A stretch of 64,000 nt of DNA from Nannocystis pusilla (GTDB lineage Bacteria > Myxococcota_A > Polyangia > Nannocystales > Nannocystaceae), in contig NZ_JAPNKE010000002.1 in the NCBI RefSeq assembly GCF_026626665.1, positions 3,373,168 to 3,437,167 on the forward strand, given 5' to 3'. The notes beneath the pieces were generated by a model. That model ran no database searches, was not told the origin of the DNA, and saw only the letters and a list, made by a program, of their open reading frames with translations. The translations under genes and the position numbers were made by a program. The stretch's first letter is position 1, and every line of letters starts with the position of its first letter. Positions 12,965 to 36,899 of this stretch are shown here, one piece after another.

Positions 12965-15510
12965 TCAGAAGTCGATGTTGTCCTCGACGCGCAGGTCGAC
13001 CGTGTTCTGCCAGCGCGGCAGCGAACCGCCGTACATCAGGGCATACGCGGCCTGCACCTCGAGCACGCGGCGGGTGTAGTTGGCCGTCTCGCGGAACGGG
13101 ATCTCGGCGATGAAGACGTCGAGCTCGAGCGGGGCCGAGCTCGAGCCCTTGGCGGCCAGCCAGCGGGCGACGTTGAAGGGGCCGCCGTTGTAGCTCGCGT
13201 AAGCCAGCGCGGCCTGGCCGTGGAACTTGTGCAGCAGCTCGGCGAAGTAATAGGCCGACAGGCGCACGTTGTGCTCCTCGTCGAACAGCGCGTCGACGTC
13301 GAACGACTCGCCGAGGCGCGCCGCCAGCTGCTGGCCGGTCCACGGCATGATCTGGATGGCCCCGCGCGCGCCCGACGACGACACCACGTGCCGGCGGAAC
13401 CGCGACTCGGTGTACATCAAGGCCCACAGGTGCGTCGGGTCGAAGGCGCGGGCGGTGGCCTCGCGCTCGACCGCCTCGCGGAACGCCCGCGGGTGCCAGC
13501 GCGCCTTGTACGAGCCGGCCGTCGCAGGCATCAGGCGGCTGCGGCGGTACGGCTCGTCGAGCGCCCACGTCAGCGCGAACAGCCCCTCGCGCAGCGTCTC
13601 GCCGGCCCCGCGCTCGCGCACCAGCTTGCGCGCGTCCTTCGGCAGGCCGAGGCGCGGCTGCTTCCACGTCGACTTCCAGCTCAGCCCCACCACCAGGTCT
13701 TCGTGGCGCGGGACCCATCCGCCGCGATCGAGCCCGTAGAGGCCCTCGTAGGCGTCGACCGCGACCCGCAGCTCGCGGCGCGCCTCGTCGAGCAGGCCGG
13801 CGGCGTGGAGCGCCGCGCCGCGGGCCAGCGCCGGGAAGGCCCAGCCGAACTCGCCGGCCAGCGCCTCGAAGGTCGCGCGCGTGGCCGCGAAGTCGGGCGC
13901 CGGGTTCGCCTCTGCGGGCACCGGGGCGAGCGCCGGCAGCGGCCCCGGATCGGCGCCGATGTCGAGCAGCCGCTGGCGCGCCTGCAGGCCGTAGTAGCCG
14001 AGCGGATCCTCGGCCACGAGCTGTCGCAGCAGGCGCTCGGCCTCGCCGCGATCGGGGGTCTGCTCCTCGCCCGCCTCGCCCGTCGCCTTCGCGCCGGCGC
14101 CGGCGGCCAGCAGCGCGCGGGCGCGGAAGTAGCGAGCGGCGCGGGCCTGGTCGGCCGGCAGGCGGCGCTCCGCGCTGGCGAACGCGGTCGCGGCGGCGTC
14201 GAAGTCGCCGAGGCGGAAGTCGAGCCAGGCGTCGAGCCACAGCCCCTCGCCGCGCTGGCGCTCCTTCGCCGGCGTGCGCCCGAGCAGCTCGCGCGCCTTC
14301 TCGTAGCGGCCGCCGCGGACCGCCTGACGGATCGCCTCCCACAGCGCCGCGCGCCCGGCCCCGCCCTTGCGCCCGGCCTGCTCGGTCCAGATCGCCAGCG
14401 CCTCGTCGTAGCGCCCGGCCTTGTCGAGGCAGCGCAGCAGGTCGCCGCGGAGGTCGCCCGAGGCTGACTTTTGAACAGGACCGAAAGGTCATCCGCGCAC
14501 GCGCCGTAGTCGTGGGCGCGCGAGGCGGTCGACGCCCGCGAGCGCAACGCGACCTCTCGGACATGTCCCGGAGTTTTGGAATCTTCGACCAGGTCCGTCA
14601 GGACCTGGCGCGACAGCGTCATGTCGCGCGAGCGGCGGGCCGCGGCCGCGCGGTCGAGCTGCTCGGCCGCGCTGTAGCGGACCGGGCGCCCGAGCTCCGC
14701 CAGCGCCGCCTCGGCGCCGACGGCCGCCTCGGTGCCGGCGCGCCAGATCGCCACGGTGCGCAGCGCCTTGACCGCGTCGGCGGTCTTGCCCTCGCGCGCG
14801 ATCGCCTGCGCTCGCAGCAGCTCGAGGCCGGCGACGTCCGGGTGCTCGGGGTAATCGCGCAGCACCTCGGTCAGCGCCTTGACTGCGCGGCGCGCCGCCG
14901 CCGGGCCCTCGATCGCCGCCATCGTCCGCGCCCGCGCGACTCGCATCGGCGCCGCGTTGCGCACCGGCTCGTGGTCGATCGCCCGCTCCCACGCCGCTAC
15001 CGCCTGCTTGCGCAGCGCGTCGGCCTCGGCGCTCGGGGCCGACGCCGCCGCCTCGACCAGCGCCTGGGCGTACTCGTGAAGCACCACCTCGTGCGGCCAC
15101 GACTTGGCCGGCCGCCGCTCCGCCGCCAGCTCGGCCAGCGCCTGCACCGCTTCGGCCGGGCGCCCGAGCTCGCGGGCGGCGCGGGCCTTCGTCAGGCGCT
15201 GCACGGAGGCTTGCAGCGAACCGACGGGCGCGGGCTCGTGAGCCAGGCGCGCGAGCGCGGCCTCGGGTTCGCCGCGCGCCAGCAAGGCCGCCGCGGAGAC
15301 CTCCGCAGGCGCCTGGGGCGGCAGGGCGGCTGCCGGTGGGGCCTGGGTCCCTGCGGTCGGCGGGCGGGCGCTGAGGGGGATCTGATTGACCCCCCGATGC
15401 ACGCGCTCGGCTTCGGGGGTGAGCGCCGCGGGTCGACAGGCGAGCAGCGCCGTGGTCGCCATGCACAGCGTCAGGGCAGACATCCGCTTCGGGTGGCTCG
15501 CCGGCGCCAT
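12965..15510 (-). CDS. soluble lytic murein transglycosylase (Slt70-like: signal peptide + TPR-like superhelical domain + SLT catalytic domain)
   Basis: N-terminal signal peptide (MSALTLCMATTALLAC) and Ala/Leu-rich TPR-like repeats. C-terminal SLT motif (ESRFRRHVVSSSGARGAIQIMPWTG...YNGGP). The two halves are in different frames and join at an A4/A5 run near 14467. The joined frame reads ...VLFKKSASGDLRGDLLRCLDKAGRYDEALAIW... Confidence 0.8.
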
Positions 15511-21713: not shown

Positions 21714-23819
21714 TCAACCCGGCTCGAGGACGAACGGGTACGAGACGATGACCGAGCCGCCGCCTTCCGGCTTGGGGAAGGTCCAGCGCTTGACCGCCTG
21801 GGCGATGCAGGAGCCGACCGCCGGGTCCTTCATCGTGCTCTCCTGGACCACCGCGGTGGGCACCTTGCCGGTGCCGCCGATGGTGAACTGGACGGCGACG
21901 CGGCCCTTGGCGTTGGGGTCGCGGGCGAGGGCCTGGTTGTAGCAGTAGCGGACCTCGTTGATGTGCGCGCGGACGATGCGGCGGATGATGTCCTTGTCGA
22001 GCGCGCCCTGGACCTCGGCCTTGGCCTGACGGACCGTCGGGACGCGGGTGCCGCGGCCGCCGAAGCCGGCGCCGGCGCCACGGCCGTAGCCGGAGCCCGT
22101 GCCGCCGCCGCCGCCCTTGCCGATGAGGCCCGTGTTGCCGAGGCCGATCGTGCCCTCGCCGGTGCCGCCGCCGCCGCGGCCGGTGCCGACCAGGCCGAGG
22201 CCGCCGACGCCGTACGCCTCGCCGATCTCCGTGCCGGTGAGGCCGCCCCACACGTCCGCGTCGTCGTTGCCGACCGCGAACGCGCCGCCGTACGGCGAGG
22301 CGAGGAAGTGGCCGCTCTCGGCGCTCATCACCCCGAGGATGCCGGCCTGGCGCGCGGCCATGTCGGGGTCGAAGTTACGGGCCATCTGCGGGATGGCGTC
22401 CTTCGGGCCCTTCATGGCGTAGAGGCCCGACTTGGTCTTCGAGGTGGGCTTGCCCATCTTGCCCTCCTCGCCCTTGTGACGCTGACCGGTGCCGCCGGCC
22501 TCGTCGTCGGAGTTCTCCATGTCCTCCGGCGGCGGCTCCTCCTCCTCCGGCGGCTTGTCGGGCTGGTTGAGGTAACCGACGAAGCGGTTCTCTTCCATCA
22601 TCTCGTCGAGGCTCAGGTTGCCGGCCTCGTTGGGGATCAGGTGCGTGAGCACCAGCAGGCTGCCGATGACCACGAACGACGCGCCGTTGTAGATCCAGAA
22701 CGGCTTGTCGGTCTCGCTGCCGCCCTTGATCACCGCGCCCGGCGCGACCGAGTTCACGTAGAAGGTGACGTCCTGGTACTTGACCCGCGCCGTCGCTCCG
22801 GGCGGCAGCGGGAAGCTGAACGACGAGCCCTGCGAGCCCGCGCGGCCGGTGGCGACCAGCTGCTGCAGCGTGATCGTCTGGCCGTCGAAGGTGACCTCGC
22901 CGCTCATGTTCTGCGTGAAGTTGAGCGCGAACTCGTGGTCGCTGCCGCGGACCAGCGGGAAGCCGTTGGGCTCGGGCAGGCCGGCCGGCGGCACGTGGAA
23001 CGACGCGCCGTGGCCCTCGCCGATCGTGAAGTTCTTGTTGACGTAGTCGCCGGTGCGGATGAGGCCCATGCTGAACGGCACGAGGCCCGCGATCGCCAGC
23101 AACATGCCGATCGCCGCCAGGCCGTTTCCGGGCGGGGTCGGGCGCGGCGTGCCCTGCTCGATCGACTCCTGGACCCGCTTGCCGTAGCCCGGCCAGTCCT
23201 GGTTCACGTCGCTGAAGAACACCGCCGTGCCGGCGGCCAGCATCACTCCGCCAATGGCGAGGAAGAGCGGCGCCTGCGACTTGCGGTTCTTCAGCTGGCC
23301 GACGTGCTGCACGTCGAGCACCGTCGAGCCGTACATCGCCACGACCTCGGCCACCCGCGAGCCGCTCTGAACCTCGACCTCGCTGAGGTCGATCTGGATC
23401 GGGGCCCGCGTCGCCATCGGCGCCGCCGCGAGCGGAGCCGCCGCCACCGCGGCCGCCGCCACGGCCACCGGCGCGGCCACCTGCGCCGGCGCCGGCGCAG
23501 CCGCGACCTGCTGCTTGGCGAAGCCGACCTCGAGCCGGTACGGCCCGAAGTTCAGGGCGTCGCCGTCGTGCAGCACCGCGTTCTTGTCGATCCGCTGGCC
23601 GTTGAGCACGGTGCCCGCCGCGCTCCCGAGATCGATCACCCGCACCTCTTCGCCGGACACCTCGATCACGGCGTGCATGCGGGCCACGGCCTCGTCATCC
23701 AGACAGATGTGGCTACTCTTCAGTTTTCCGATCTTGATAACGTCTTGCGTCAGCGTCTGCGTATCGACGAGCTGATCGCCGTAAAACACTTTGATGGCGA
23801 GCGTCTTGGTCGTTGTCAT
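21714..23819 (-). CDS. FHA-domain membrane protein with Gly-rich region and TonB-C-like C-terminal domain
   Basis: FHA domain (LAIKVFYGDQ...GKLKSSHICLDDEAVARMHAVIE...LNGQRI) and two TM segments. A Gly-rich tract (GTGRGGGGTGEG...) precedes a C-terminal TonB-C-like fold (VAVQFTIGGTGKV...VKRWTFPKP). The architecture recalls myxobacterial gliding-motility/Tol-like accessory proteins. Confidence 0.75.
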   Translation of the reverse strand: MTTTKTLAIKVFYGDQLVDTQTLTQDVIKIGKLKSSHICLDDEAVARMHAVIEVSGEEVRVIDLGSAAGTVLNGQRIDKNAVLHDGDALNFGPYRLEVGFAKQQVAAAPAPAQVAAPVAVAAAAVAAAPLAAAPMATRAPIQIDLSEVEVQSGSRVAEVVAMYGSTVLDVQHVGQLKNRKSQAPLFLAIGGVMLAAGTAVFFSDVNQDWPGYGKRVQESIEQGTPRPTPPGNGLAAIGMLLAIAGLVPFSMGLIRTGDYVNKNFTIGEGHGASFHVPPAGLPEPNGFPLVRGSDHEFALNFTQNMSGEVTFDGQTITLQQLVATGRAGSQGSSFSFPLPPGATARVKYQDVTFYVNSVAPGAVIKGGSETDKPFWIYNGASFVVIGSLLVLTHLIPNEAGNLSLDEMMEENRFVGYLNQPDKPPEEEEPPPEDMENSDDEAGGTGQRHKGEEGKMGKPTSKTKSGLYAMKGPKDAIPQMARNFDPDMAARQAGILGVMSAESGHFLASPYGGAFAVGNDDADVWGGLTGTEIGEAYGVGGLGLVGTGRGGGGTGEGTIGLGNTGLIGKGGGGGTGSGYGRGAGAGFGGRGTRVPTVRQAKAEVQGALDKDIIRRIVRAHINEVRYCYNQALARDPNAKGRVAVQFTIGGTGKVPTAVVQESTMKDPAVGSCIAQAVKRWTFPKPEGGGSVIVSYPFVLEPG

Positions 23820-24087: not shown

Positions 24088-24593
24088 ATGACCTCCGACC
24101 TCGCGCCCCCTCACCTCCCGGCCCGAGCCCGATCCTCACCCTCCGGATCAGCGTCCGCGGCCTCTATGACAGCTGGACGCACTGCCAGCGGCTGGCCGAT
24201 TACATCGCGCGCTTCGTCGCCTCCGATCGCTTCGATCCCGAGCAGCTGACCACGCGCCTCTCGACCTATCTCAACGAGGTGCTCGAGTACGTGTTCCGCG
24301 CCCGGCCGAGCGAGGGCGAGATCGTGGTCGAGGTCGGGCGCACCGACGAGCACGTGATCGCCGAGCTGACGATACCGACCGACGAGGCGCTCGCGCAGCG
24401 GCTGCGCGACGACCTCGGGCGGGTCGCGCCGGCGGACGCGCGCGCCCGCTACGAGGCCGAGTTCGAGTCGATGATCCTGCGTCCGCCGGCCGAGGTCGGG
24501 CTGCTCGAATTGGTGGCGCTCCACGGCGTCGAGCTCGCGCTGCGCGAGGGCGACGGCGTCGGCGTCATCGTCCTTACCGTCCCGCACGAGTGA
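24088..24593 (+). CDS. slr1658-superfamily / SiaB-like GHKL-type regulatory ATPase (start uncertain)
   Basis: LRISVRGLYDSWTHCQRLADYIARFV...LNEVLEYVFRA...GEIVVEVGRTDEHVIAELTIP parallels the downstream SiaB-like protein (LNELIENAVKF...GEFVVVVSNQV). It lacks an in-frame ATG, so a GTG start or an upstream frameshifted ATG at 24088 is likely. Confidence 0.55.
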
Positions 24594-24605
24594 GCCGAGC
24601 TGGGT

Positions 24606-25778
24606 ATGGAGAACGAGCAACCGTTTTCGATCCGCTTCAGCGAGAACGACCAGGAGGTCGCGCTCGAGGGGACGCTGCGGCCCGCCGGCCCCGAGGCGTT
24701 CGCGCCGGTGCGGGCGCGCCTCGACCACGCCGCCGACGCCGTGCGCGGCGTCCTCTACCTCAACTTCAAGCGCCTGCGTTACCTCAACCACACCGGCTTC
24801 CTCGAGCTCGCGCGCTTCATCGCCGCCTGCGCCGAGCGCCACCCGAGCCTCAAGCTCAAGCTCGTCGTCTCGAGCGTCGTCCCGTGGGCGCCGCTGCGGT
24901 TCGGCTTCCTCGGCGCGCAGTTCGGCAACACCATCGTCGAGCAGTACGACAAGGCGTTTTACCCCGGTCAGGGCGTCATCGAGAACGATCAGCTCGTGCC
25001 GGTCCTGCGGACTCAGACCAACATCGTGTGGTCGCACGAGCGCGAGCTGCTGCGCCGCCACGGCCTCGGCAAGCACATGCGGATCGCCGACATCTGCTGC
25101 GGGATCGGCGACTTCGCGGTGCTCGTCTACAAGGAGTTCGAGCCCGCGTACATCGTCGGCGTCGACCACTCGCGGCCCTTCCTTCAATACGCGCAGCAGA
25201 TGGCCCGCGAGTTCGGCATCACCGACATCGAGTATCAGTTCGGCGACGCGACCCACCTGTTCTTGCCGTCGAACAGCTTCGACTTCGTCACCTCGCGCCT
25301 GGCGCTGCAGATCTTCAACGACCCGTCGAGCATCTTGCGCGAGCTGGTGCGGATCTGTAAACCCGGCGGTCGGGTCTACCTGACCAACGAGATGACGGCG
25401 CACAACTACGGCTACCCGCGCCACGAGTCGGTCGCGTGGACCTACCAGCAGGCCGTGAAGATCGCCCAGAGCCTCGGCATGGACATGAACTTCGGGCCCA
25501 AGATGTTCTCGCAGCTCACCGACATGGGCCTCGAGGACGTGCGCATGGAGCAGATCCCGATCACCAACAACAACACCGCGATCGACGACTTCGCGCGGGT
25601 GATCGAGAGCTGGGAGGAGTACGTCACCGGCGAGCTGTCGACCGCCACGCAGCAGCCGCCGGAGGTGGTCGAGCGCCTGCGCATGGGCTTCCGCGATCAC
25701 GTCTACGCGATCCGCAGCCGCCGCGGCTTCGCCACCTGGCCGATCTACGTCGCCTCCGGCCGCAAACCGGAGCGCTGA
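24606..25778 (+). CDS. fusion protein: N-terminal SiaC-like (DUF1987) domain + class I SAM-dependent methyltransferase
   Basis: The N-terminal about 140 aa (FSIRFSENDQEVALEGTLRP...LYLNFKRLRYLNHTGFLELARF) aligns by eye with the stand-alone SiaC-like protein at 28742 (VWFDAPARTVHFEGVLRL...LQFLNSSGINMLYKF). The C-terminus carries methyltransferase motif I ADICCGIGDFA and post-I acidic residue (VGVDHS), then ICKPGGRVYL. Confidence 0.8.
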   Translation: MENEQPFSIRFSENDQEVALEGTLRPAGPEAFAPVRARLDHAADAVRGVLYLNFKRLRYLNHTGFLELARFIAACAERHPSLKLKLVVSSVVPWAPLRFGFLGAQFGNTIVEQYDKAFYPGQGVIENDQLVPVLRTQTNIVWSHERELLRRHGLGKHMRIADICCGIGDFAVLVYKEFEPAYIVGVDHSRPFLQYAQQMAREFGITDIEYQFGDATHLFLPSNSFDFVTSRLALQIFNDPSSILRELVRICKPGGRVYLTNEMTAHNYGYPRHESVAWTYQQAVKIAQSLGMDMNFGPKMFSQLTDMGLEDVRMEQIPITNNNTAIDDFARVIESWEEYVTGELSTATQQPPEVVERLRMGFRDHVYAIRSRRGFATWPIYVASGRKPER

Positions 25779-25799
25779 CGGCCCTCGCCGCTCGACCGC

Positions 25800-28159
25800 A
25801 TGGCCACCACGGGCTCAAGGTTCCGCACCAAGTTCGTCCTCGTCGCCGGGGTCGGGCTGGTCATCGGGCTGACGCTCGCGGCGCTGGCCTCGCTGCAGGG
25901 CATCCGCGTGCTCGGCGGCGACGCGTCGGAGGAGATCCGCAAGGGCCTCGAGCGAGCCAGCCGCGAGTACCTCACCAACCACATCGAGGACACCGCGCAG
26001 CGCGTCGAATTCCTGCGCGGGCGGGCGCGGGCCGAGCTCGGCGTGCTCGCGGCGGTCACCCAGACGCTCATCGACGAGCAGGCCGACCTCGCGCCGCTGA
26101 CCGCCGCCGCCGCCGCCGCCGGGCCGCTGCGCGACGCCCTCGTCTACGACCCGCGCGGCGACTGGTCGCAGACCGAGGCCGGCGAGGCGTCGGCGGTGGC
26201 CGTGTGGGGCTACCTGCACGCGCCGGTAGCTCCCGATCAGCCCGGCCTTCGGGACATCAAGCCCGAGGTCCGCGCCGCGGTCGAGCAGACCGCCCTGCTC
26301 GACCTGCTGCTGCCTGCGCTGCTGCAGTACGGGGCCGAGAAGCAGGCCATGTACTTCATCGGCCCCGAGGGCGCCGAGTACCTGCGGATCGCCCCCTACG
26401 CCGACGCGGCCGGCCACGCCGATCGACTCTATCCCGGCCACAACAAGAGCCCGTTCTGGGGCTTCTACTTCCCCGGCATCGTCGACGGCTGGCGGCGCTG
26501 GCTCGGCGACCCCGCGCGCATGCGCGACCCGGCGGCGCAGGTCACCGGCACCGCGCCGTACACCGACGCGGGCGGCAGCGGGGCCATCATGACCATGTTT
26601 CAGCCGCTGTGGGACGCCTCGCGCGCGCGTTCGCCGGGGCCGTCGGCGTCGACGTCACCCTCGGCCAATTGATCCGCTACGTCCAGGACCTCGAGCTCGC
26701 CGGCTCGGGCTTCGCCTTCCTCGCCCAGGAGAACGGCAACGTGTTCGCCGTCAACGCCGACGGCCAGGAGATCCTCGGCCTGCAGCAGGCCAGCGGCTCG
26801 TCGGGCGCCGGCGTCGACATCTTCCAGCAGTTCCTGCACCAGTCGCGCGACCCGGCCATCCGGGCGCTCGCGCTGCCCGGCGGCGACGCCGTCGACTACC
26901 GCGACCCGGTCGCGATCGGCGGCAAGGACTACGTCGTCGTGCTCAAGCGGCTCGATCCGTTCAACGTCTGGTCGGGTTCGACCGACATCGTGCCGGAGCG
27001 CTGGACCCTCGGCTTCGTCGTGCCTGCCGCCGAGATCTACGCCTCGCTGCACAAGGCGCAGGACACCATCGCTGCCAGCAGCCGCGGGATCCTCAGCAGC
27101 CAGATCGTCATCACCCTCGTCGCGCTGGCGATCGTGATGTTCGGGATCCTCCTGGTCTCGCGGCGCATGACCGGCGCGCTGGTCGACCTCGCCGCGGGCG
27201 CCGGCAAGATCGCGCAGAAGGACTACGACGTGCGGGTCGACGTGCGCAGCGACGACGAGTTCGGCGCGCTCGGCCGCGCCTTCAATCAGATGGCCGCCGA
27301 GATCCGCGCGTATACGCACGACCTCGAGCGCCTGGTCGAGCAGCGCACCGCCGAGCTGCAGCGGGCCTCCCGCGAGATCATGGCACTCAACGAGCGGCTC
27401 AAGCAGGAGAACCTGCGCCTCGGCGCCGAGCTCGACGTCGCCCGCCGGCTGCAGCTCATGGTGCTGCCGCAGGAGCGCGAGCTGGCCGAGCTCGAGGGCC
27501 TGGACGTCGCCGGCTACATGCGGCCCGCGGACGAGGTCGGCGGCGACTACTACGACGTCCTGCGCGCCGGCGACGGCGTCAAGATCGGCATCGGCGACGT
27601 CACCGGCCACGGCCTCGAGAGCGGCGTGCTGATGCTGATGATCCAGACGGCCGTGCGCACCTTGCAGGCCGCCGAGGAGCGCGACGCGGAGCGCTTCCTC
27701 AACATCGTCAACAAGGTCCTCTACCAGAACATCCAGCGCGTCGGCCTCGACCGCACCGCGACGCTGGTGCTCCTCGACTACGCGCAGGGCGTGCTCCGCC
27801 TCACCGGGCAGCACGAGGAGGCGGTGGTGGTCCGGCGGAACGGCTCGATCGAGCGCATCGACACGGTCGACCTCGGCATGCCGGTGGGGCTCGAGGTCGA
27901 CATCGCCGCGTTCATCGCCCGCACCGAGCTGCGCCTGTCGCCGGGCGATGTCGTCGTCCTGTACACTGACGGCATAACCGAGGCGGAGGACATCCACGGC
28001 GAGCAGTACGGCATCGACCGCCTGTGCGAGGTCGTGCACCGGGTCCACGAGCGGCCGGCGGCCGACATCAAGCAGGCGATCGTCGACGACGTCATGCGCT
28101 TCATCGGCGCGCAGAAGGTCTTCGACGACATCACGACGGTGGTGATCAAGCGGCGCTGA
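25800..28159 (+). CDS. membrane sensor PP2C-type phosphatase (TM - periplasmic Cache-like domain - TM - HAMP - SpoIIE/PP2C), SiaA-like
   Basis: TM1 (FVLVAGVGLVIGLTLAAL), an about 400-aa periplasmic region, TM2 (IVITLVALAIVMFGILLV), and a HAMP motif (DDEFGALGRAFNQMAAEI). PP2C motifs follow: GGDYYDV, GDVTGHG, LYTDGITEA. The frame changes once at a (CG)n run near 26615. Confidence 0.8.
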
Positions 28160-28181
28160 GGCGCCGAGGCGGACGGAGAGT

Positions 28182-28745
28182 ATGGACGGCATCATCGGCG
28201 AGTACAAAGAGCCCACCGACGCTGGACCGCGCGTCATGCTGACGTTCTACCCCGGGGCGTTCCCGGTGAAGTGGAACCAGTGCAGCGTGGCGGCCGACTT
28301 CTTCGCCGAGTACTTCGTCGACGTCGGCGAGGGCGGGCTCACCGAGGAGGCCGAGCGGCGCGACTTCGTCGGCAGCGTCGGTTACGTGCTCAACGAGCTG
28401 ATCGAGAACGCGGTCAAGTTCTGCGCCGGCGGCACCGTCGTCATCGACGCGGGCGTCGAGGCGGGCGAGTTCGTGGTCGTCGTCAGCAACCAGGTGTGCG
28501 GCGACGCGGTCGACGGCCTGCGGGTCAAGTTCGCCGAGCTGCTCGACGGCGATCCCGCCGAGCTCCTGATGCAGCGGGTCGAGGAGAACGCCGCCAACCC
28601 CGAACTCACGACCTCGGGCCTGGGCTTTCTCACCATGCTGTCGGACTACAAGGCCCGGCTCGGCTGGCGCTTCGACCCCGCCCCTGGCAATCCTGACAAC
28701 GCGCTCCTCAAGACCGCCGCCCGGCTACAGGTGAAATCGTCATGA
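28182..28745 (+). CDS. SiaB-like serine/threonine kinase (GHKL ATPase, anti-sigma-factor-like)
   Basis: 187 aa with an N-box-like LNELIENAVKF and a Gly-rich ATP lid region (TSGLGF). It sits between the PP2C gene and the SiaC-like gene, as in the siaABC operon. Confidence 0.8.
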   Translation: MDGIIGEYKEPTDAGPRVMLTFYPGAFPVKWNQCSVAADFFAEYFVDVGEGGLTEEAERRDFVGSVGYVLNELIENAVKFCAGGTVVIDAGVEAGEFVVVVSNQVCGDAVDGLRVKFAELLDGDPAELLMQRVEENAANPELTTSGLGFLTMLSDYKARLGWRFDPAPGNPDNALLKTAARLQVKSS

Positions 28746-29116
28746 CGGACACAACTACGCGACCCTCCGGGTCGGACACCGACATCAAAGGCCCCGGCTA
28801 TCGCGTGTGGTTCGACGCGCCCGCGCGCACGGTCCACTTCGAGGGCGTGCTCCGCCTCAGCACCAGCGAGTACAAGCCGATCGAGGACCTGCTCGACCGC
28901 GTCCTGCTGGAAAGCCCCGCGCTCGGCCTGCGCATGACCGAGCTGCAGTTCCTGAACAGCTCGGGCATCAACATGCTCTACAAGTTCGCCATCGCCGCGC
29001 GCAAGAAGGGCGAGACGGAGATCAAGGTCCACGGCTCGTCGAACATCCCGTGGCAGGGCAAGTCGCTGCCCAACCTCAAGAAGTTCCTGCCGACGATCGT
29101 CATCGCCCTCGACTGA
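28742..29116 (+). CDS. SiaC-like (DUF1987) regulatory phosphoprotein
   Basis: 124 aa with the characteristic FLNSSGINMLYKF motif. Its ATGA start overlaps the stop of the upstream kinase gene. Confidence 0.8.
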   Translation: MTDTTTRPSGSDTDIKGPGYRVWFDAPARTVHFEGVLRLSTSEYKPIEDLLDRVLLESPALGLRMTELQFLNSSGINMLYKFAIAARKKGETEIKVHGSSNIPWQGKSLPNLKKFLPTIVIALD

Positions 29117-29129
29117 GCCGGCCGCCCGC

Positions 29130-30356
29130 ATGCTCACGGATGACCCGCGCTGGCAGCGAGCCCTCGCCGACCCCGACGCCGCGGCCGAGCTCCTGGCCGA
29201 CCCCGGCGCGCGCGCCGAGTTCATGGCCGCCGTCGCCGCGCTGCAGGCCGAGCACGACGACCTGGTCTTGCTGCACGACTCGACGCTCGAGCACGCCAAC
29301 GAGATCGAGGAGCAGCTGGCCGTCAAGATCGAGCAAGTCGAGGCCCTGGTGGTCGAGCTCGAGCTGCGCAACACCTTCATCCGCCAGGTGTTCGGCCGCC
29401 ACGTCACCGACGAGGTCGTCAACACCTTGCTCGCCTCGCCGGAGGGCCGCCAGCTCGGCGGCGAGCGGCGCACCCTGACGATCCTGATCTCCGACCTGCG
29501 CGGCTTCTCGACGCTGTGCGAGGGCCTCGGCCCCGAGCAGGTGGTGGCGATCCTCAACATCTACCTCGGCGCCATGGCCGACGTGATCGGCGAGTACCGC
29601 GGCTCGATCAACGAGTTCATCGGCGACGCCATCCTCGCGGTGTTCGGCGCCCCGGTGCCGCAGGACGACCACCCCGAGCGCGCGGTCGCCTGCGCGATCG
29701 CCATGCAGCGGGCGATGGGCCGCGTCAACGCCGAGCTGGCCGAGCACGGCCTGCCCGCGCTCGAGATGGGCATCGGCGTCCACACCGGCGAGGTCGTGGT
29801 CGGCAACATCGGCTCGAACCGCCGCGCCAAGTACGGCGTGGTCGGCCGCCACGTCAACCTGACCTCGCGCATCGAGAGCTACACCGTCGGCGGTCAGGTG
29901 CTGATCTCCGAGTCGGCCGCGCGAGCCCTCGGCGACCGCCTCCGCACCCGCGGCTGCTTCGAGGTCCGGCCCAAGGGCGTGCGCGAGCCGATCACGATCC
30001 ACGACGTCACCGGCGTCGACGGCCCGTTCGCCATCCACATGATCGAAGAGGCCGCCGAGTGGCGGGTCCTGGCCGAGCCGCAGCCGCTCGTCTTCACCGC
30101 GCTCGAGGGCAAGGACACCGGCGGCCAGGAGTTCCCGGCGCTGCTCGTGGCCCACGACGAGCGCCACAACGCCGAGCTGCGGGTCGCCGCCTCGCTGCCG
30201 CTGCGCGCCGACCTCAAGCTCGTCCTCGCCGCCCTGCCCGGCGTCGACGCCTACGCCAAGGTCGTCGCCGCCGGCCCGGGCCGCGCGGTCGTCCGCTTCA
30301 CCGCCCTGCCGCGCGCGCTGCAAGAGCTGCTCGACTCCCTGCCCGCGCGGGCCTGA
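29130..30356 (+). CDS. class III adenylate/guanylate cyclase with N-terminal coiled-coil/regulatory region
   Basis: Catalytic motifs ILISDLRGFSTL (metal Asp), FIGDAILAVFGAP (second Asp), and GIGVHTGEVVVGNIGSNRRAKYGVVGRHVNLTSRIES (transition-state Asn/Arg). Confidence 0.85.
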   Translation: MLTDDPRWQRALADPDAAAELLADPGARAEFMAAVAALQAEHDDLVLLHDSTLEHANEIEEQLAVKIEQVEALVVELELRNTFIRQVFGRHVTDEVVNTLLASPEGRQLGGERRTLTILISDLRGFSTLCEGLGPEQVVAILNIYLGAMADVIGEYRGSINEFIGDAILAVFGAPVPQDDHPERAVACAIAMQRAMGRVNAELAEHGLPALEMGIGVHTGEVVVGNIGSNRRAKYGVVGRHVNLTSRIESYTVGGQVLISESAARALGDRLRTRGCFEVRPKGVREPITIHDVTGVDGPFAIHMIEEAAEWRVLAEPQPLVFTALEGKDTGGQEFPALLVAHDERHNAELRVAASLPLRADLKLVLAALPGVDAYAKVVAAGPGRAVVRFTALPRALQELLDSLPARA

Positions 30357-30482: not shown

Positions 30483-32047
30483 TCAGTCGCGGCGGGCCAG
30501 CAGCGTCGCGTGCATGTCGCTGCCGTCGATGCTCTCGTCGAGCGGCTCGTCGATGTCGATGATCACGCTCTCGCCGCCCGAGCTGGTCGGCGGCGGGATC
30601 GGCGGGACCGAGCGCGGCGCGACCGAGCCCGGCGGGCCCTCGACGGGGGCGGTCCGCGACCCGCGGCCCTCGACGCCGGCGAAGCGGGCCGCCAGGGTGC
30701 GCACGAACGCGCCCATCCACGGCTTCATCGACGTCAGCTCCTCCTCGATCAGGTCGCTGGTGATCTTGGTGAGCGTCGCGTCCTCGACGACCAGCACGCT
30801 GGCGGTCCGGCGCGAGGCGGCGAAGATCGACGTCTCGCCGAACACGTCGCCCGGCCCGAGCCAGCGCAGCGACACGTGGTGCCCGGCCTCGAGCTTGTAG
30901 ACCTCGAGCCTGCCGGCCAGCACGATGTAGGCCGCGTCGCCGATCTCGCCCTCGCGGATCACGTGGTCGCCGGCGGCGAAGCGGACCGTCTGGAAGCTGC
31001 CGCTGCCGCGCAGCAGGCGGACGATGTCGGCCTGCAGCGCCGCCACGCTCGGGTAGCGATCGTCGGGGTCGCGGCGCAGCGCCCGGGTCACGATGCGCAC
31101 CAGCTCGCGCGGGAACGGCACCGCGACGTGGCTGTCGGGCGGGGCGAACTTCGCCTCGCGCGCGAGGATCAGCGCGTCCATCGCCGTGCGCGCGTGGTAC
31201 GGCGGCCGCCCGGCCATCATCTCGTAGAGCAGCGCGCCCATCGAGAACACGTCGGCGCGCTCGTCGAGCGGGTGGCTGTTGGCCTGCTCGGGCGACATGT
31301 ACGACGGCGTGCCGAACACCAGCCCGTCGGTCTCCGACGGCGGCAGCGGCGGCAGGGCGTCGCGGACCCACCGCGCCTCGTCTTCGGCGGACCGCAGCGG
31401 CAGGATCTGGGCCCCGCCCCAGTCCATCAGATAGACCTGGCCGTAGGCGCCGACCATCACGTTGGCCGACTTGATGTCGCAGTGGATCACCCCGCGGCTG
31501 TGGGCGAACGACAGCGCGTCGCACACCTTGACGAAGATCTCGAGGCGGTGGAACAGCCGCTCGTGGTCGGTCGCCGGCTCGCCGCCGATCAGCGCCTTCA
31601 GCTCTGGCCCTCGACCAGCTTCATCGTGAAGTAGAGCTGGCCCTGCTCGTCGCGCCCGAGCTCGTGGATCGGCACGATGTTGGGGTGGTCGAGCTGACCC
31701 GTCACCTGGGCCTCGCGCAAGAACCCGTGCACGAGCATCAGGTGGTCGTAGGTCTTGGCGTGCATGACCTTGGCGGCCATCCGCCGCTGCAGCACCTCGT
31801 CGAACGCGAGCCGCACCGAGCCCATCCCGCCGCGCGCCAGCTCGTCGCCGAACGACAGCCGCGGCACCTGGTCCGGCAGCGCCGCGCGGATGAGGGCCTC
31901 CAGCCGCTCCTCATAGGAGAGCGGGGAGTCGCGGTCGAACAGCCGCTCGAGCGCGGCGCTGGGGGACGAGCCTCCGGGGCGGCGACCTGGCATGCGGGGC
32001 CACGATACAATGGCGCCTCGGCGGTGGTACACCGGGGCGGCCGGCAT
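30483..32047 (-). CDS. Ser/Thr protein kinase with C-terminal cyclic-nucleotide-binding (cNMP) domain
   Basis: Kinase N-lobe (GRGGMGSV...AAKV) and catalytic loop (HCDIKSAN), DWG, SPE. The cNMP domain reads FAAGDHVIREGEIGDAAYIVLAGRLEVY...GPGDVFGETSIFAASRRTASVLVV. The two halves are in different frames and join at a cc/c site near 31590. The start is uncertain (31995 or 32047). Confidence 0.8.
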
Positions 32048-33200
32048 GGACCTGCGCACCGCCCTCGTCACGCTCCGCCTGCGCCACCCGTTCGGCCTGT
32101 CGCGCGGCACCGTGAGCGAACTGCCGAGCTTGCTCGTGCGCATCGACCCGGGCGACCCGGACGGCGCAGCAGCGGACGGCCCCGATCGCCGCGGCCTCGG
32201 TGAGGCCTCGCCCGTGCGCTACCTCGGTCAGTCGGCGGTCGCTGCCGCGCCGCTGGCGGTCGCGATCGCGGCCGAGCTCTCCCCCGAGATCCTCGCCGAC
32301 CCGCGCGCGATCGCGGCCGCCGGCCCGCGCATGCGCGAGCTCGCCCCCGATCACTCCGCGGCTCGCTGCGCCGTCGACACCGCCCTGTGGGACGCCGCCG
32401 CCCGCGCCTGCGGCCGCCCGCTGGCCGAGCTGCTGGCCGATCCCGACGTGCTCGATCGGGCAGGTCTCGATCGCCATGTCCTTTCGGCCACCTCGGGGGC
32501 CACGGTCACCTCTTACACGATCGCGCTCGACGAGCTCCCGGCGATGGCGGCCCGCGCGGCCGCGGCCGCGCACCTCCCGGTGCTCAAGATCAAGCTCGGA
32601 AAGGGCCGCGAATTCGACCGCGCCGCCCTGCGTGCGGTCGCCGCCGCCGCGCCGCGCGCCCGCCTGCGGGTCGACGCCAACGGCGGCTGGACCCCGGACG
32701 ACGTGCGCGCCCTGCTCCCGCTGCTGGTCGATCTCGGGGTCGAGCAGCTCGAGCAGCCGCTGCCTGCGGGTCGGCCCGACCTCCTCGCGGCGCTCGCGCG
32801 CGACTGCCCGTTGCCGATCTACGCCGACGAGGACGTGCAGGGCCCGGACGACGTGGCGGCGCTGCGGGGCCGGGTCGCGGGGATCAACGTCAAGCTGATG
32901 AAGTGCGGCGGGATCTCGCCGGCCCTGGCGACGATCGCCGCGGCCCGGGATAGCGGCCTGCGGGTGCTCGTCGGCTGCATGATCGAGACCCGCGTCGGGC
33001 TCGCCGCCGGCGCCGCCCTGGCCCGCCTCGCCGACGAGGCCGACCTCGACGCCCACATGCTCACGCGGGCCGACCCGATGCCGCCGGGGAGCCAAGAGCG
33101 GCTCGCGCCCGACCTGCCGCGGCTTTGCGGCCCCGGCCTCGGCGTCCCGCCCGGGGCGTTGCCCGCGGACGGCGACCCGGGCCCCGGGCGCGTGGCATAA
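32046..33200 (+). CDS. enolase-superfamily enzyme (dipeptide epimerase / muconate-cycloisomerase-like)
   Basis: Metal-ligand and catalytic motifs: KIKLG (Lys), RVDANGGW (Asp), EQP (Glu), YADE (Asp), NVKLMKCGG (Lys). Confidence 0.75.
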   Translation: MDLRTALVTLRLRHPFGLSRGTVSELPSLLVRIDPGDPDGAAADGPDRRGLGEASPVRYLGQSAVAAAPLAVAIAAELSPEILADPRAIAAAGPRMRELAPDHSAARCAVDTALWDAAARACGRPLAELLADPDVLDRAGLDRHVLSATSGATVTSYTIALDELPAMAARAAAAAHLPVLKIKLGKGREFDRAALRAVAAAAPRARLRVDANGGWTPDDVRALLPLLVDLGVEQLEQPLPAGRPDLLAALARDCPLPIYADEDVQGPDDVAALRGRVAGINVKLMKCGGISPALATIAAARDSGLRVLVGCMIETRVGLAAGAALARLADEADLDAHMLTRADPMPPGSQERLAPDLPRLCGPGLGVPPGALPADGDPGPGRVA

Positions 33201-33213
33201 TCCACGCTCCGCC

Positions 33214-36200
33214 TTGAATCCCGACGAGCCCCAGGCCCGCGCCTCGCTGCCGGTGACGCCACCTGTCCCTGAGGACATCCTTCCGCGTCCGCTCGGCCGC
33301 TACGAGCTGGTGCGTCGGGTCGGCTCCGGCAGCATGGGCGTCGTCTACGCGGCCGTCGATCGCGACAGCGGCCGCACCATCGCGCTCAAGACCCTGCACC
33401 AGCTCGACCCGGGCGCGCTGTTCCGCCTCAAGAACGAGTTCCGCAGCGCCGCCGGCCTGTCGCACCCGAACCTCGTCAGCCTCCACCAGCTCGTCTCGCA
33501 CGACGACGAGTGGTTCATCACCATGGAGTTCGTCGACGGCGTCAGCTTCTTCGACCATGTCCGTCAGGGCATGTCCGAAAGGACAGGCGCAGCGCCGCCG
33601 CCGGAGCGCCTGCGCCCCGCCTTGCTGCAGCTGGCCGCCGGCGTCAGCGCCCTGCACGCCGCCGGCAAGCTGCACCGCGACCTCAAGTCGTCGAACGTGC
33701 TGGTCACCGCCGACGGCCGCGTCGTCATCCTCGACTTCGGCCTCGCCGCCGACGACGTCGCCGAGGGCGGCGAGGACGGCCTGCTCGGCACGCCGGCGAC
33801 GATGGCGCCGGAGCAGGCCGCCGGCAACCCGGCCTCGCCCGCGAGCGACTGGTACGCGATCGGCGTCATGCTCTACGAGGCGCTGACCGGCCGCCTGCCG
33901 TTCACCGGCCCGCCGCTCGCGATCCTCCACGCCAAGCAGCACGAAGATCCGGCGCCGCCGCAGGCGCTCGTGCCCGACGTCGATCCGAGCTGGCGGCGCT
34001 GTGCATGGGCCTGCTGCAGCGCGACCCGGCCGCGCGGCTCGGCGGCGCCGACATCCGCGAGGCCCTCGGCGAGGCCCCGCTCGGGCCCACCGAGTCGGGC
34101 GCGCGCTTCGTCGGCCGCGACGACCTGCTGTCGGCCATGCGCGACGCCTTCCAGCTCGCGCTCGCCGGCTCGCCGGTGTGCGTGTACGTCCGCGGCCGCT
34201 CCGGCATCGGCAAGACCGCGCTCATCGATCGCTTCATCGCCGAGCTGCGCCGCAACGACCGCGCCTTCGTCCTCCAGGGCCGCTGCTACGAGCGCGAGAG
34301 CGTGCCGTACAAGGCCTTCGACAGCGTCCTCGACGCGCTCGCGCAGCACCTCCGCCACCTCCCGCAGGAGGAGGCCGCGGCCCTGCTGCCGCGCGAGATC
34401 CACGAGCTCACGCGGCTGTTCCCCGTCCTCGCGCGCGCCCCCGTGGTCGCCGATCTGCCGCAGCGCAACTTCGTCGCCCCCGACCCGCAAGAGGCGCGGC
34501 GTCGGGCCTTCCGCGGGCTCAAGGAGCTGCTGGCGCGGATCGCCGATCGCCGCCCGCTGGTGCTGCGGATCGCCGACCTGCAGTGGGGCGACGAGGACAG
34601 CGCGCGCCTGCTGGTCGAGCTGCTGTCGCCGCCCGATCCGCCGGCGATGCTCTTCATCGGCTCGTACCGCATCGACGAGGACGACGCGCCGATGCTCCGC
34701 GAGCTGCGGCGGCTCGGCGCGCGGCCCGAGCTCAAGGCGCTGGTGCGCGACCTGCTGGTCGAGCCGCTCTCGCCCGATCAGGCCGAGGAGCTCGCGCTCG
34801 CCCGGCTCGGCCGCGACAGCGACAGCGCGCGCGCCGAGGCGCGCCGGATCGCCGCCGAGTCGGGCGGCAACCCGCTGTTCGTCGAGGAGCTCGCGCGTCA
34901 CATCGCCGGTCACCGCGGCGCCGCGCCGGCCGAGGTCTCGCTCGACGCGGTCGTGCGCACCCGCCTCGCCGGCCTGCGCGCCGCCGGTCGCAGCCTGCTC
35001 GAGATCGTCGCCGTCGCCGGGCGGCCGATCCCGCCGAGCCTCGCGTTCACGGCCTCGGGCGTCACCGATCGCGCGGTCCTCGGCGAGCTGCAGGCGCAGC
35101 ACCTGCTGCGCACGCTGGCCTCGCGCAGCGGCGACACCGTCGAGTGCTACCACGACCGGATCCGCGACACCGTGCTGGCGCAGCTCGGCGGCGACCGCCT
35201 GGCGCAGCTGCACCGCACCCTCGCCGACGCCCTCGCGCAGTCGGCCGACGACCCCGAGCTGCTGGCCCACCACCTGCACGCCGCCGGCGCCTTGAAGGAG
35301 GCGCACGCGGCCGCCGTCGCCGCCGCCGAGCGGGCCGCCGCTTCACTCGCCTTCTACCGCGCCGCCCAGCTGTACGGTCGCGCCCTCGCGTGGGCGTCCG
35401 ACCTCCCGGACGACGAGCGGCGCGCCCTCCTGCGTCGCCGCGCCGACGCGCTCGCGCTGGCCGGTCGCAGCGCCGAAGCGGCCCCCGTCTACGCCAGCGC
35501 CGCCGAGGGCGCCTCGCCGGCCGAATCACTCGAGCTGCGCCGCCGCGCCGGCGAGCAGTTCCTCGTCAGCGGCAACATCGACCAGGGCGTGCAGATGCTG
35601 CGCCCCGCGCTGGTCGAGGTCGACCTCGGCTACCCGGCCACGCCCGGCCGCGCCAACATGTCGATCATCACTCGCTCGACGCAGCTCAGCCTGCGCGGCC
35701 TCGGCTTCGCCGCGGTGCGCGAGGAGCAGGTCCCGCCGGCCGACCTGCTGCGCCTCGACGTGTGCCTGTCGGCCGCCGTCGGCCTCGCCTTCGTCGACCC
35801 GATCCGCGGCTACAGCTTCTACCAGCGCGGCCTCCTCCTGGCCCTTCAGACAGGTGAGCCGCAGCGGATCGCCCGCGCCCTCGCCGGCGTCGGCGCCATG
35901 ATCATGAGCCGCGGCACCGCCAACGCCGTCGGCCGCGGCACCACCCTGCTCAAGGAGGCGCGCCGCCTCGCCGAGCAGCTCTCCGAGCCGCGCCTCATCG
36001 GCCTGTGCGAGATCGTCGACGCCATCGCCGCCGTCTCGCTCGGCCGCTGGCGCCGCGCGCTCGAGCACTGCGAGCAGGGCGCCCAGATCCTGCTCGACCG
36101 CTGCGTCGGCGTCGGCTGGGAGCTCGACCTCGCCCGCATGAGCACGATGCGCGGCCTGTTCATGCTCGGCGAGCTGGCCGAGCTCGGCCACCGCGCCCAC

Positions 36201-36899
36201 GCCTGGCTGCGCGAGTCGGAGGACGCCGGCGATCTGTGCGGCGAGGTCTGGTCGGCGCTCTACAGCGCCTACGCCCTGCTCGGCGCCGACGACATCACCA
36301 GCGCGCGCGACCGCGTGCGCGGGGCGATGCGCCGCTGGTCGAAGGACGGCTTCCACTTCCAGCACATGCTCGCGCTGATCCTCGAGACCTCGTGCGACCT
36401 GTACCAAGGGCAAGGTGGCTCCGCCTGGCAGCGTCTGGCCGAGAGCTGGGTCGCCGTCGAGAACTCGTACATCTTCGGCTGGCAGGGCCAGCGGATCCTC
36501 TTCCTCCACGCGCGAGGCCTCGCCGCCGTCGCGGCCGCGCGCGAGCAGCCGCACAACGCCGGCGTCCTGCTCGCCGCCGCCGAACGCGACGCCGCCCAGC
36601 TCGAGGAGGACCGCGCGCTGCGCCACGACTCCGTCGCCATGGCCGCGCTGATCCGGGCCGGCATCGCCGCGCAGAACGGCGACATCCAGCAGGCGCTCGT
36701 CCGCCTCGAGGCCGCCGCCGCCAGCTTCGACACCGCCGACATGCCGGTCCACGCCGCCTGCGCCCGGCGCCGCCGCGGCGAGCTGCTGGGCCCCAGCGGC
36801 GCCACCTTGATCGCCCAGGCCGACCAGTACCTCGCCTCGCGGGCCATCCTCCGCCCCGCCCAGTGGAGCGCGATGTACAACGGCAGCGCGCCCACCTGA
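33214..36899 (+). CDS. large multidomain Ser/Thr protein kinase (kinase + AAA/NB-ARC-like ATPase + TPR-like C-terminal region)
   Basis: Kinase motifs GSGSMGVVY, ALK, HRDLKSSNVLV, DFG, APE. Walker A GRSGIGKTAL and Walker B LVLRIADLQWGDEDS. A long Ala/Leu-rich helical repeat region follows. One frame interruption at gg/g near 33965. Confidence 0.85.

Follow-up and report, generated by a model that had tools for sequence, protein, structure and literature searches.

The present analysis concerns a putative signalling operon in a stretch of 64,000 nucleotides from Nannocystis pusilla (contig NZ_JAPNKE010000002.1, positions 3,373,168 to 3,437,167; the whole stretch is referred to as the window), a high-GC sequence with a G+C content of approximately 70%. 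Six co-directional genes on the plus strand, here named g1 to g6, encode a BgrS-like degenerate paralogue of GHKL kinases (g1, 24088..24593), a BgrT-like fusion of a STAS-like domain to a class I S-adenosylmethionine (SAM) methyltransferase (g2, 24606..25778), a BgrU-like sensor phosphatase in which two transmembrane segments flank a dCache domain and are followed by HAMP and PP2C domains (g3, 25800..28159), a BgrW-like GHKL serine kinase of the slr1658 superfamily (g4, 28182..28745), a BgrV-like single-domain STAS-like protein of the slr1659 superfamily (g5, 28742..29116) and a class III nucleotidyl cyclase (g6, 29130..30356). An earlier note on this DNA had described the six genes by their motifs, all of which are present in the window, and had reported short gaps and overlaps between them, in agreement with the spacing that we find from g1 to g6 (12, 21, 22, -4 and 13 bp, the negative value being an ATGA overlap). 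A promoter and terminator scan, otherwise uninformative in this high-GC organism, revealed no terminator-like or promoter-like site on the plus strand inside the cluster. We propose that g1 to g5 form a partner switch orthologous to the Bgr system of Sinorhizobium meliloti and that g6 is its effector, a reading to which we assign a probability of roughly 60%.

The core of the operon comprises the three components of a partner switch, namely a PP2C phosphatase, a GHKL kinase and a STAS-like protein, and in this respect the domain calls agree with the earlier note. The g3 protein matches the Pfam models dCache_1 (weakly), HAMP (E 2.1e-13) and SpoIIE (E 3.6e-39), its PP2C domain of the SpoIIE type exhibits the motifs GGDYYDV, GDVTGHG and DGITEA, and intact orthologues of 786 aa are present in five Nannocystis genomes. 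In case of g4, the NCBIfam model slr1658_superfam (NF047703, cut-off 100) gave 143 bits, with Pfam returning only HATPase_c (E 0.002) and a weak match to DUF6272; the N-box (NELIENAVKF, residues 71-80) and the G2 box (SGLGFL, residues 145-150) are conserved, the N-box asparagine and the G2 box being invariant in the g4 family, and kinase activity would be expected by analogy with the S. meliloti orthologue. The g5 protein scored 124.5 bits against slr1659_superfam (NF047705, cut-off 100), and the motif FLNSSGIN is invariant in its family. Its predicted fold is the b-b-a-b-a-b-a-b arrangement of STAS and anti-sigma-antagonist proteins with a phosphorylatable serine at the N-terminus of helix 2: Ser73 (codon 28958-28960) opens this helix, aligns with Ser58 of SpoIIAA in a profile alignment and is the predicted phospho-acceptor. 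The closest structural match to the predicted fold of g5 is SiaC; searching the PDB by sequence, with g4 and g5 as well as with profiles of their families, afforded only marginal matches to STAS proteins (E 0.05-1 for g5) and to the N-box of histidine kinases, and did not reach SiaB or SiaC. In Sorangium and Polyangium g4 and g5 are naturally fused, which supports a direct interaction between the two proteins.

The first two genes encode a second, degenerate version of the same pair. The relationships implied in the earlier note between gene 1 and gene 4, and between the N-terminal domain of gene 2 and gene 5, were both borne out by hhalign (98.4%, E 5.4e-15 for g1 against the g4 family; 97.7%, E 1.5e-12 for the g5 family against the g2 N-domain), and we regard these proteins as paralogues. 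Against slr1658_superfam, g1 scored 35 bits (E 6.7e-9; cut-off 100), and it has lost both the N-box asparagine (LNEVLEYVF) and the G2 box, by which it is predicted to be a degenerate kinase (pseudokinase) paralogue of g4. Residues 5-94 of g2 likewise match slr1659_superfam below the cut-off of 100 (43 bits, E 5.1e-11), and the AlphaFold2 model (predicted local distance difference test score, pLDDT, of 89) shows a b-b-a-b-a-b-a-b fold at residues 7-113, making this domain approximately 113 aa in length rather than the roughly 140 aa first estimated. A phospho-acceptor Thr/Ser had been expected in both STAS-like sequences: for g5 this is the predicted Ser73, whereas in g2 the position of g5 Ser73 and SpoIIAA Ser58 is taken by His62, in a column that is never Ser or Thr among 30 diverse homologues. 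The class I SAM domain that follows (approximately residues 155-390; Pfam Methyltransf_11, E 3.8e-19) has Foldseek matches among small-molecule and peptide enzymes, including 3MGG, LahSb and phosphoethanolamine methyltransferases. Thus g2 is predicted to be a methyltransferase with a non-phosphorylatable STAS-like N-domain, and g1 and g2 would together constitute a second pair incapable of the canonical phosphorylation switch. With His62 at the acceptor site and the N-box asparagine of g1 lost, the suggestion that one phosphatase/kinase pair gates two outputs by phosphorylation is not supported; the g1/g2 pair probably acts by competitive binding within the same network. The linker joining the two domains of g2 (window 24939-25070, residues 112-155; EQYDxAFYPGQGVIExDxLxPVLRTQTxIxWxHE) hardly varies among homologues from four phyla, yet the model is least confident here (pLDDT 64-67); a role as a binding or substrate loop is possible.

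The last gene, g6, matches Pfam Guanylate_cyc (E 4.2e-26), and its catalytic domain (residues 108-305) shares 57% identity (112/198, E 1.5e-69) with that of Cya2 from Synechocystis PCC 6803 (PDB 2W01). In the alignment to 2W01 the catalytic set, on which the assignment as a cyclase had been made to depend, is complete (metal-binding D122 and D166, transition-state N243 and R247), and the specificity pair E162/G236 is the one found in Cya2, as expected of Cya2-like guanylate cyclases. Glu162 occupies the position of E488 in Cya2, and the single change E488K turns Cya2 into an adenylate cyclase (PMC5995499). On account of this glutamate and the 57% identity to Cya2, the product of g6 is probably cyclic GMP (cGMP). 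The role of the glycine of the pair in Cya2 specificity was reportedly described by Rauch et al. in 2008. Both enzymes also share the transducer element (FGRH, residues 88-91 in g6) and the presence of a C-terminal extension, termed g6C in g6 (residues 306-408, approximately 100 residues and conserved). They differ in their input: Cya2 resides in the membrane and is controlled in cis through CHASE2, whilst g6 is soluble and upstream of the transducer exhibits only some 80 residues without a sensor domain, among them a helical module at approximately residues 28-80 that we refer to as g6N. The g6N motif of the window protein is LEHANEIEEQL (residues 53-63; 29286-29318), with the general form LEHxxEIExxL. 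No Pfam model matches g6N, g6C or the g6N segment of the PP2C proteins described below, and a 56-column alignment of the g6N motif gave no significant match in a database of 5.8 billion sequences. The anatomy predicted for g6 fits a cyclase that receives its input in trans via the N-terminal helix. The Cya2-like catalytic domain followed by g6C is itself a widespread module (loci L120, L165 and approximately 55 other metagenomic loci). Its specificity position is usually Glu, and its fusion partners are PAS arrays or dCache-HAMP-PAS sensors; soil bacteria may possess predicted cyclases of the guanylate type more often than published work suggests.

The cassette formed by g1 to g5 is not new. 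Plasmid pSymB of S. meliloti 1021 carries, at 458,865-465,603, a GGDEF-EAL gene and, behind it, counterparts of all five genes in unchanged order, in keeping with the hexacistronic bgrRSTUWV operon, and BLASTP identities over near full length are 30% for g1 (BgrS), 47.5% for g2 (BgrT), 44.6% for g3 (BgrU), 36% for g4 (BgrW) and 46% for g5 (BgrV). All five components thus have homologues: the small kinase paralogue, the STAS::methyltransferase fusion, the dCache-HAMP-PP2C sensor, the GHKL kinase and the STAS-like protein, in identical order and with a nucleotide cyclase in the operon. We take bgrR to be SMb20447; a search for SMb20447-52 gave no match. In S. meliloti, BgrSTUWV is a partner-switching system that modulates the diguanylate cyclase BgrR (PMC8457831), the phosphorylation state of BgrV being set by the phosphatase BgrU and the kinase BgrW (PMC7647112) and the bgrV product acting as a repressor of BgrR (PMC13438883). 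By homology and gene order, g1 to g5 are predicted to be the Nannocystis orthologues of bgrSTUWV, and the impression of the earlier note that the arrangement had not been described is not supported for the five-gene cassette, STAS::methyltransferase fusion included. Direct inhibition of BgrR by BgrV is said to have been proposed by Baena et al. in 2019, in the abstract of the primary Bgr paper. The two systems differ in the cyclase: BgrR is a GGDEF-EAL protein that stands first in its operon and has a PAS-like N-terminus without g6N, whereas the Nannocystis operon ends with a class III Cya2-like cyclase carrying the g6N helix, and no GGDEF or EAL open reading frame (ORF) is present between window positions 14000 and 40000.

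Full-length homologues of g2 were found in 910 clusters of the protein database and in 452 matches of a collection holding one genome per species. A look-up of the exact g2 protein gave no record, which places the source strain outside the collection queried. We scanned 81 non-redundant loci using hidden Markov models built from the window proteins and iterated, and the order g1-g2-g3-g4-g5 was found in essentially all 81 loci, which come from Myxococcota, Alpha- and Gammaproteobacteria and Verrucomicrobiota; plasmid records with the cassette number 120, 80 of them from Sinorhizobium. What adjoins the cassette differs between loci. A class III cyclase with g6N was identified in 15/81 loci, located downstream on the same strand in eight Nannocystis loci and upstream in seven others (Polyangia, Myxococcota, 'Alphaproteobacteria', Chthoniobacteraceae, Gammaproteobacteria and unclassified metagenome-assembled genomes, MAGs), while a soluble PP2C with the g6N motif adjoins 39/81 (downstream in Sorangium and Polyangium, upstream and divergent in many Alpha- and Gammaproteobacteria and in Chthoniobacter). 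BgrR-like GGDEF-EAL genes lie upstream of the cassette only in 11 rhizobial loci, and in the remaining 16 loci there was no recognised effector within the fetched flank. The g6N motif is thereby found on cassette-adjacent cyclases or PP2Cs at 54/81 loci. As the g6N-bearing cyclases represent the catalytic subtypes Glu/Gly, Asp/Gly, Lys/Thr and Lys/Asp, the constant element is the helix and not the catalytic domain. Within Nannocystis, a g6-type cyclase lies 13 bp downstream of the cassette in the window and in 8/8 related loci (g2 identity 65-99%). The reverse test, using 80 metagenomic relatives of g6, placed g4-g5 directly upstream in 11/11 informative orthologues of at least 61% identity; in relatives of 45-50% identity the catalytic and C-terminal domains are retained, and cis PAS or Cache-HAMP-PAS arrays occupy the place that g6N alone has in g6.

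Several of these loci display variations of their own. In a Gammaproteobacteria MAG (locus L049, 6216-7586) the cassette-adjacent Cya2-like cyclase exhibits three to four tandem copies of g6N (DLEMMIEMSAEHADTVQEEL). Three Nannocystis MAG loci (L012-L014) contain the cassette without the internal dCache-HAMP-PP2C gene (g1-g2-g4-g5-cyclase); upstream of it, on the opposite strand, a separate cluster in L012 and L013 combines a second class III cyclase, this one lacking g6N, with a PP2C and a divergent kinase-like/STAS-like pair, and in L014 the upstream PP2C alone is visible, at the contig end. In Sorangium cellulosum So ce56 (locus L002, 11697-14588) and equivalent Sorangium and Polyangium loci, the BgrW-like::BgrV-like fusion is approximately 305 aa in length and is followed on its 3' side by a g6N::PP2C protein, a second kinase-like/STAS-like pair and a PAS-GAF-STAS protein, a two-tier layout that recalls RsbRST, RsbU and RsbVW. 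Cis sensor domains that had appeared to precede g6N in a second tier of metagenomic cyclases were discarded: the long stop-to-stop frames are artefacts of high GC content, and the proteins start just before g6N.

The mechanism that we propose draws its direct support from homology, synteny, motifs and predicted folds, and from these we infer every interaction, the substrate that the cyclase uses and the direction in which control is exerted. A periplasmic ligand would be perceived by the dCache domain of the membrane phosphatase g3, the PP2C domain of which would dephosphorylate g5 at Ser73, with the GHKL kinase g4 re-phosphorylating it; the phosphorylation state of g5 would then pick its binding partner and in this way set the activity of the effector encoded beside the cassette, this being BgrR in S. 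meliloti and, in Nannocystis, the soluble Cya2-type cyclase g6 with cGMP as its predicted product. The g6N helix would serve as docking and transmission element leading into the cyclase transducer element. In the arrangement that we prefer, unphosphorylated g5 would bind the g6N helix directly, as SiaC does on the stalk of SiaD, and change the activity of the g6 dimer; alternatively, g4 freed from g5 could bind the helix in the manner of RsbT. The sign of the regulation may go either way, given that BgrV represses BgrR and SiaC activates SiaD.

A number of observations weigh against a Bgr-type switch acting on g6. In the window both g1 and g3 carry frameshifts and are not intact ORFs, g4 lacks a canonical G1 box, and the bgr names were mapped onto the pSymB genes by gene order and domain types, with bgrR taken to be SMb20447; BgrR, moreover, has no g6N motif, meaning that the docking mode is not simply transferable from the characterised system. 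For five g6-type cyclases of 55-59% identity that possess a complete g6N, the surrounding 2-7 kb contain no cassette, and 16 of the 81 cassette loci have no recognisable effector nearby: the linkage is therefore frequent and recurrent, not obligatory, and of the six-gene co-conservation that had been anticipated it is the g1-g5 part that is strongly kept. Class III cyclases are also abundant in myxobacteria, so that adjacency within one genus is weak evidence taken alone. The unlinked cyclases, the cassettes with no recognisable effector and the abundance of class III cyclases would suit a cyclase that is a mere neighbour under independent regulation, with the g2 methyltransferase (or an unlinked target) as the sole conserved output: g2 is present in every cassette, and the adjacent enzyme varies or is absent. 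We nevertheless consider this unlikely, as g6 follows after a gap of 13 bp with no terminator before it, the linkage persists throughout Nannocystis, at g2 identities as low as 65%, as well as in all of the informative metagenomic orthologues, g6N is common to unrelated catalytic domains specifically beside the cassette in four phyla, and the adjacent cyclase is the demonstrated target in S. meliloti. On balance, the comparative evidence lends support to the cyclase as the effector of the cassette but falls short of proof. A different wiring of the same parts has to be weighed as well, in which g4 (or the pseudokinase g1) would bind and activate the cyclase through its helix, unphosphorylated g5 would only sequester g4 and g3 would switch the cyclase off. 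RsbU is activated in this way, by the kinase paralogue RsbT binding to its N-terminal domain, and the commonest effector beside the cassette, the soluble PP2C with an N-terminal helical module, exhibits the architecture of RsbU; in Sorangium this PP2C precedes the second kinase-like/STAS-like pair as in the two tiers of the Rsb pathway, and the genetic behaviour of BgrV as a repressor is consistent with the sequestering of an activator. The resemblance of g5 to SiaC argues in the opposite direction, since SiaC touches its cyclase directly on the N-terminal stalk helix, as does the direct inhibition of BgrR by BgrV that Baena et al. are said to have proposed, and we hold the RsbT-like wiring to be rather doubtful.

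The frameshifts could also be real, with the operon decaying in the source strain and the system non-functional there, as single-base deletions interrupt g1, g3 and a neighbouring kinase gene in the window sequence. In case of g1, alignment to three sister genomes places the true start at the ATG at 24088, and the loss of 1 nt from a C-run at 24106 throws the gene out of frame; in g3, the loss of 1 nt from a CG-run at 26630 divides the gene into 25800-26672 and a second frame extending up to 28159, and the gene of the kinase with a cyclic nucleotide monophosphate (cNMP)-binding domain is broken by a 1-nt deletion at approximately 31600. At the DNA level the region shares 97% identity with Nannocystis sp. 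RBIL2, compared with 92-94% for N. pusilla, N. punicea, N. radixulma and N. bainbridge. Comparison of the window to RBIL2 over 13.3 kb revealed six single-base deletions (23946, 24106, 26630, 28165, 31600 and 33987) and zero single-base insertions; four deletions are coding and two intergenic, disrupting g1, g3, the cNMP-binding kinase and a large kinase gene, and several fall within short C or CG runs, the deletions showing no depletion in coding sequence. The g3 and kinase sites are intact in 5/5 sister genomes and the g1 site in the 3/3 compared, the codons flanking the deletions being otherwise conserved. Because the pattern consists of deletions alone and the sister genomes are intact, we have treated the deletions as consensus indel errors: they look like uncorrected errors of the assembly and not biology, the reading of g1 and g3 as pseudogenes was dropped on the strength of the deletion-only pattern, and decay of the operon is very improbable. 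Further ORFs of the window may likewise be artificially split.

Comparison with characterised partner switches places the Bgr-type operon of Nannocystis amongst several related systems. The earlier note had read the operon as SiaABC-like: this is apt as an analogy and as a distant structural relationship, and it does not extend to family membership. The equivalog model for SiaA (NF038263) gave 115 bits for g3 against a cut-off of 700, with the HAMP-PP2C part alone aligning; the SiaB family model (SiaB_fam, NF038262) gave 23.7 bits for g4 against a cut-off of 85 and no match for g1; and when the Pfam models DUF1987, HATPase_c_2 and STAS were run on the window proteins, DUF1987, the SiaC family, matched neither g5 nor the N-domain of g2. 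With all three curated models below cut-off or silent, membership of SiaABC was ruled out. SiaABCD of Pseudomonas aeruginosa differs further in having neither a methyltransferase nor a second pair, in the GGDEF nature of SiaD and in the use of Thr as the acceptor in SiaC. The slr1658/slr1659 pair of Synechocystis and other cyanobacteria is closer at the level of family, as g4 and g5 score above the curated thresholds for NF047703 and NF047705. In the one cyanobacterial locus examined, from Rivularia, slr1658-like and slr1659-like genes are accompanied by a PilJ-PP2C and a further DUF6272 protein, so that the pair adjoins a sensor PP2C here too; this locus differs from that of Nannocystis in having no methyltransferase fusion, no cyclase neighbour and a PilJ in place of a dCache sensor. 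The only published phenotype of the pair is that of an slr1658 mutant, concerning iron-starvation recovery and pgr5 overexpression. The RsbRST-RsbU and RsbUVW pathways of Bacillus subtilis share with the Bgr-type cassettes the PP2C, GHKL kinase and STAS components, an effector with an N-terminal helical module and, in the Sorangium relatives, the two-tier layout. They differ in that no sigma factor is encoded at the Nannocystis locus, where the output is a second-messenger enzyme, and in that the families are distant, the STAS matches lying at E 0.05-1.

Directly after g6, in convergent orientation on the minus strand (30483..31993), lies the gene for the Ser/Thr protein kinase with a C-terminal cNMP-binding domain, and it takes this place in the window as well as in 8/8 related Nannocystis loci. 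Its domains were assigned on the N. pusilla orthologue (Pfam Pkinase, E 2e-37; cNMP_binding, E 5.6e-17). The phosphate-binding cassette of this kinase, FGETSIFAASRRTASV, reads RRTAS, and we take Arg-Thr-Ala at this site to be a signature of cGMP-dependent protein kinase (PKG) and cyclic nucleotide-gated (CNG) channels. In the proposed scheme this kinase would be the likely reader of the cyclic nucleotide, and it is a plausible candidate for a bacterial cGMP-dependent kinase acting on the product of the cyclase. The full chain can be put forward only tentatively: the Nannocystis Bgr-type switch would control cGMP and not cyclic di-GMP (c-di-GMP), its STAS-like protein or kinase would dock on an uncatalogued, portable N-terminal helix found on guanylate and adenylate cyclases and PP2Cs of four phyla, and the adjacent cNMP-binding kinase would read cGMP, such that an extracellular ligand would act via the partner switch and cGMP on a PKG-like kinase.

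Partner-switching is known to control sigma factors and, in the three cases of Sia, Hsb and Bgr, diguanylate cyclases; cGMP signalling in bacteria is rare and poorly understood. Within the searchable literature, which is incomplete, we found nothing relevant on partner-switch control of class III cyclases or on myxobacterial cGMP signalling. What appears to be new is the occupation of the effector slot by a class III Cya2-like cyclase, the occurrence of g6N on alternative effectors, the finding that BgrW and BgrV have degenerate paralogues in BgrS and BgrT, and the neighbouring cNMP-dependent kinase. If the class III cyclase is the target, partner-switch control extends to cAMP/cGMP signalling, and a predicted guanylate cyclase beside a PKG-like cNMP-binding kinase offers a directly testable pathway. 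That one cassette is found with GGDEF-EAL, PP2C and cyclase effectors, the last two with a common helix, suggests a modular docking element, which could explain the target choice of the widespread Bgr and slr1658-slr1659 systems. The comparison also provides the uncharacterised BgrS and BgrT with probable evolutionary origins, as a pseudokinase paralogue of BgrW and as a non-phosphorylatable STAS::methyltransferase paralogous to BgrV.

Two further genes flank this region. On the plus strand at approximately 32046-36899 lies a gene that is broken up over different reading frames in the window and whose N. pusilla orthologue encodes 1621 aa with mandelate racemase/muconate-lactonising enzyme, protein kinase and AAA_16 domains. 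Divergent from g1, on the minus strand (21717-23819), is the gene for a 699-aa FHA-domain protein (Yop-YscD_cpl/FHA) that is conserved in N. pusilla, related Nannocystis genomes aligning across the region at the DNA level; a link of this FHA protein to the nearby Ser/Thr signalling genes is possible.

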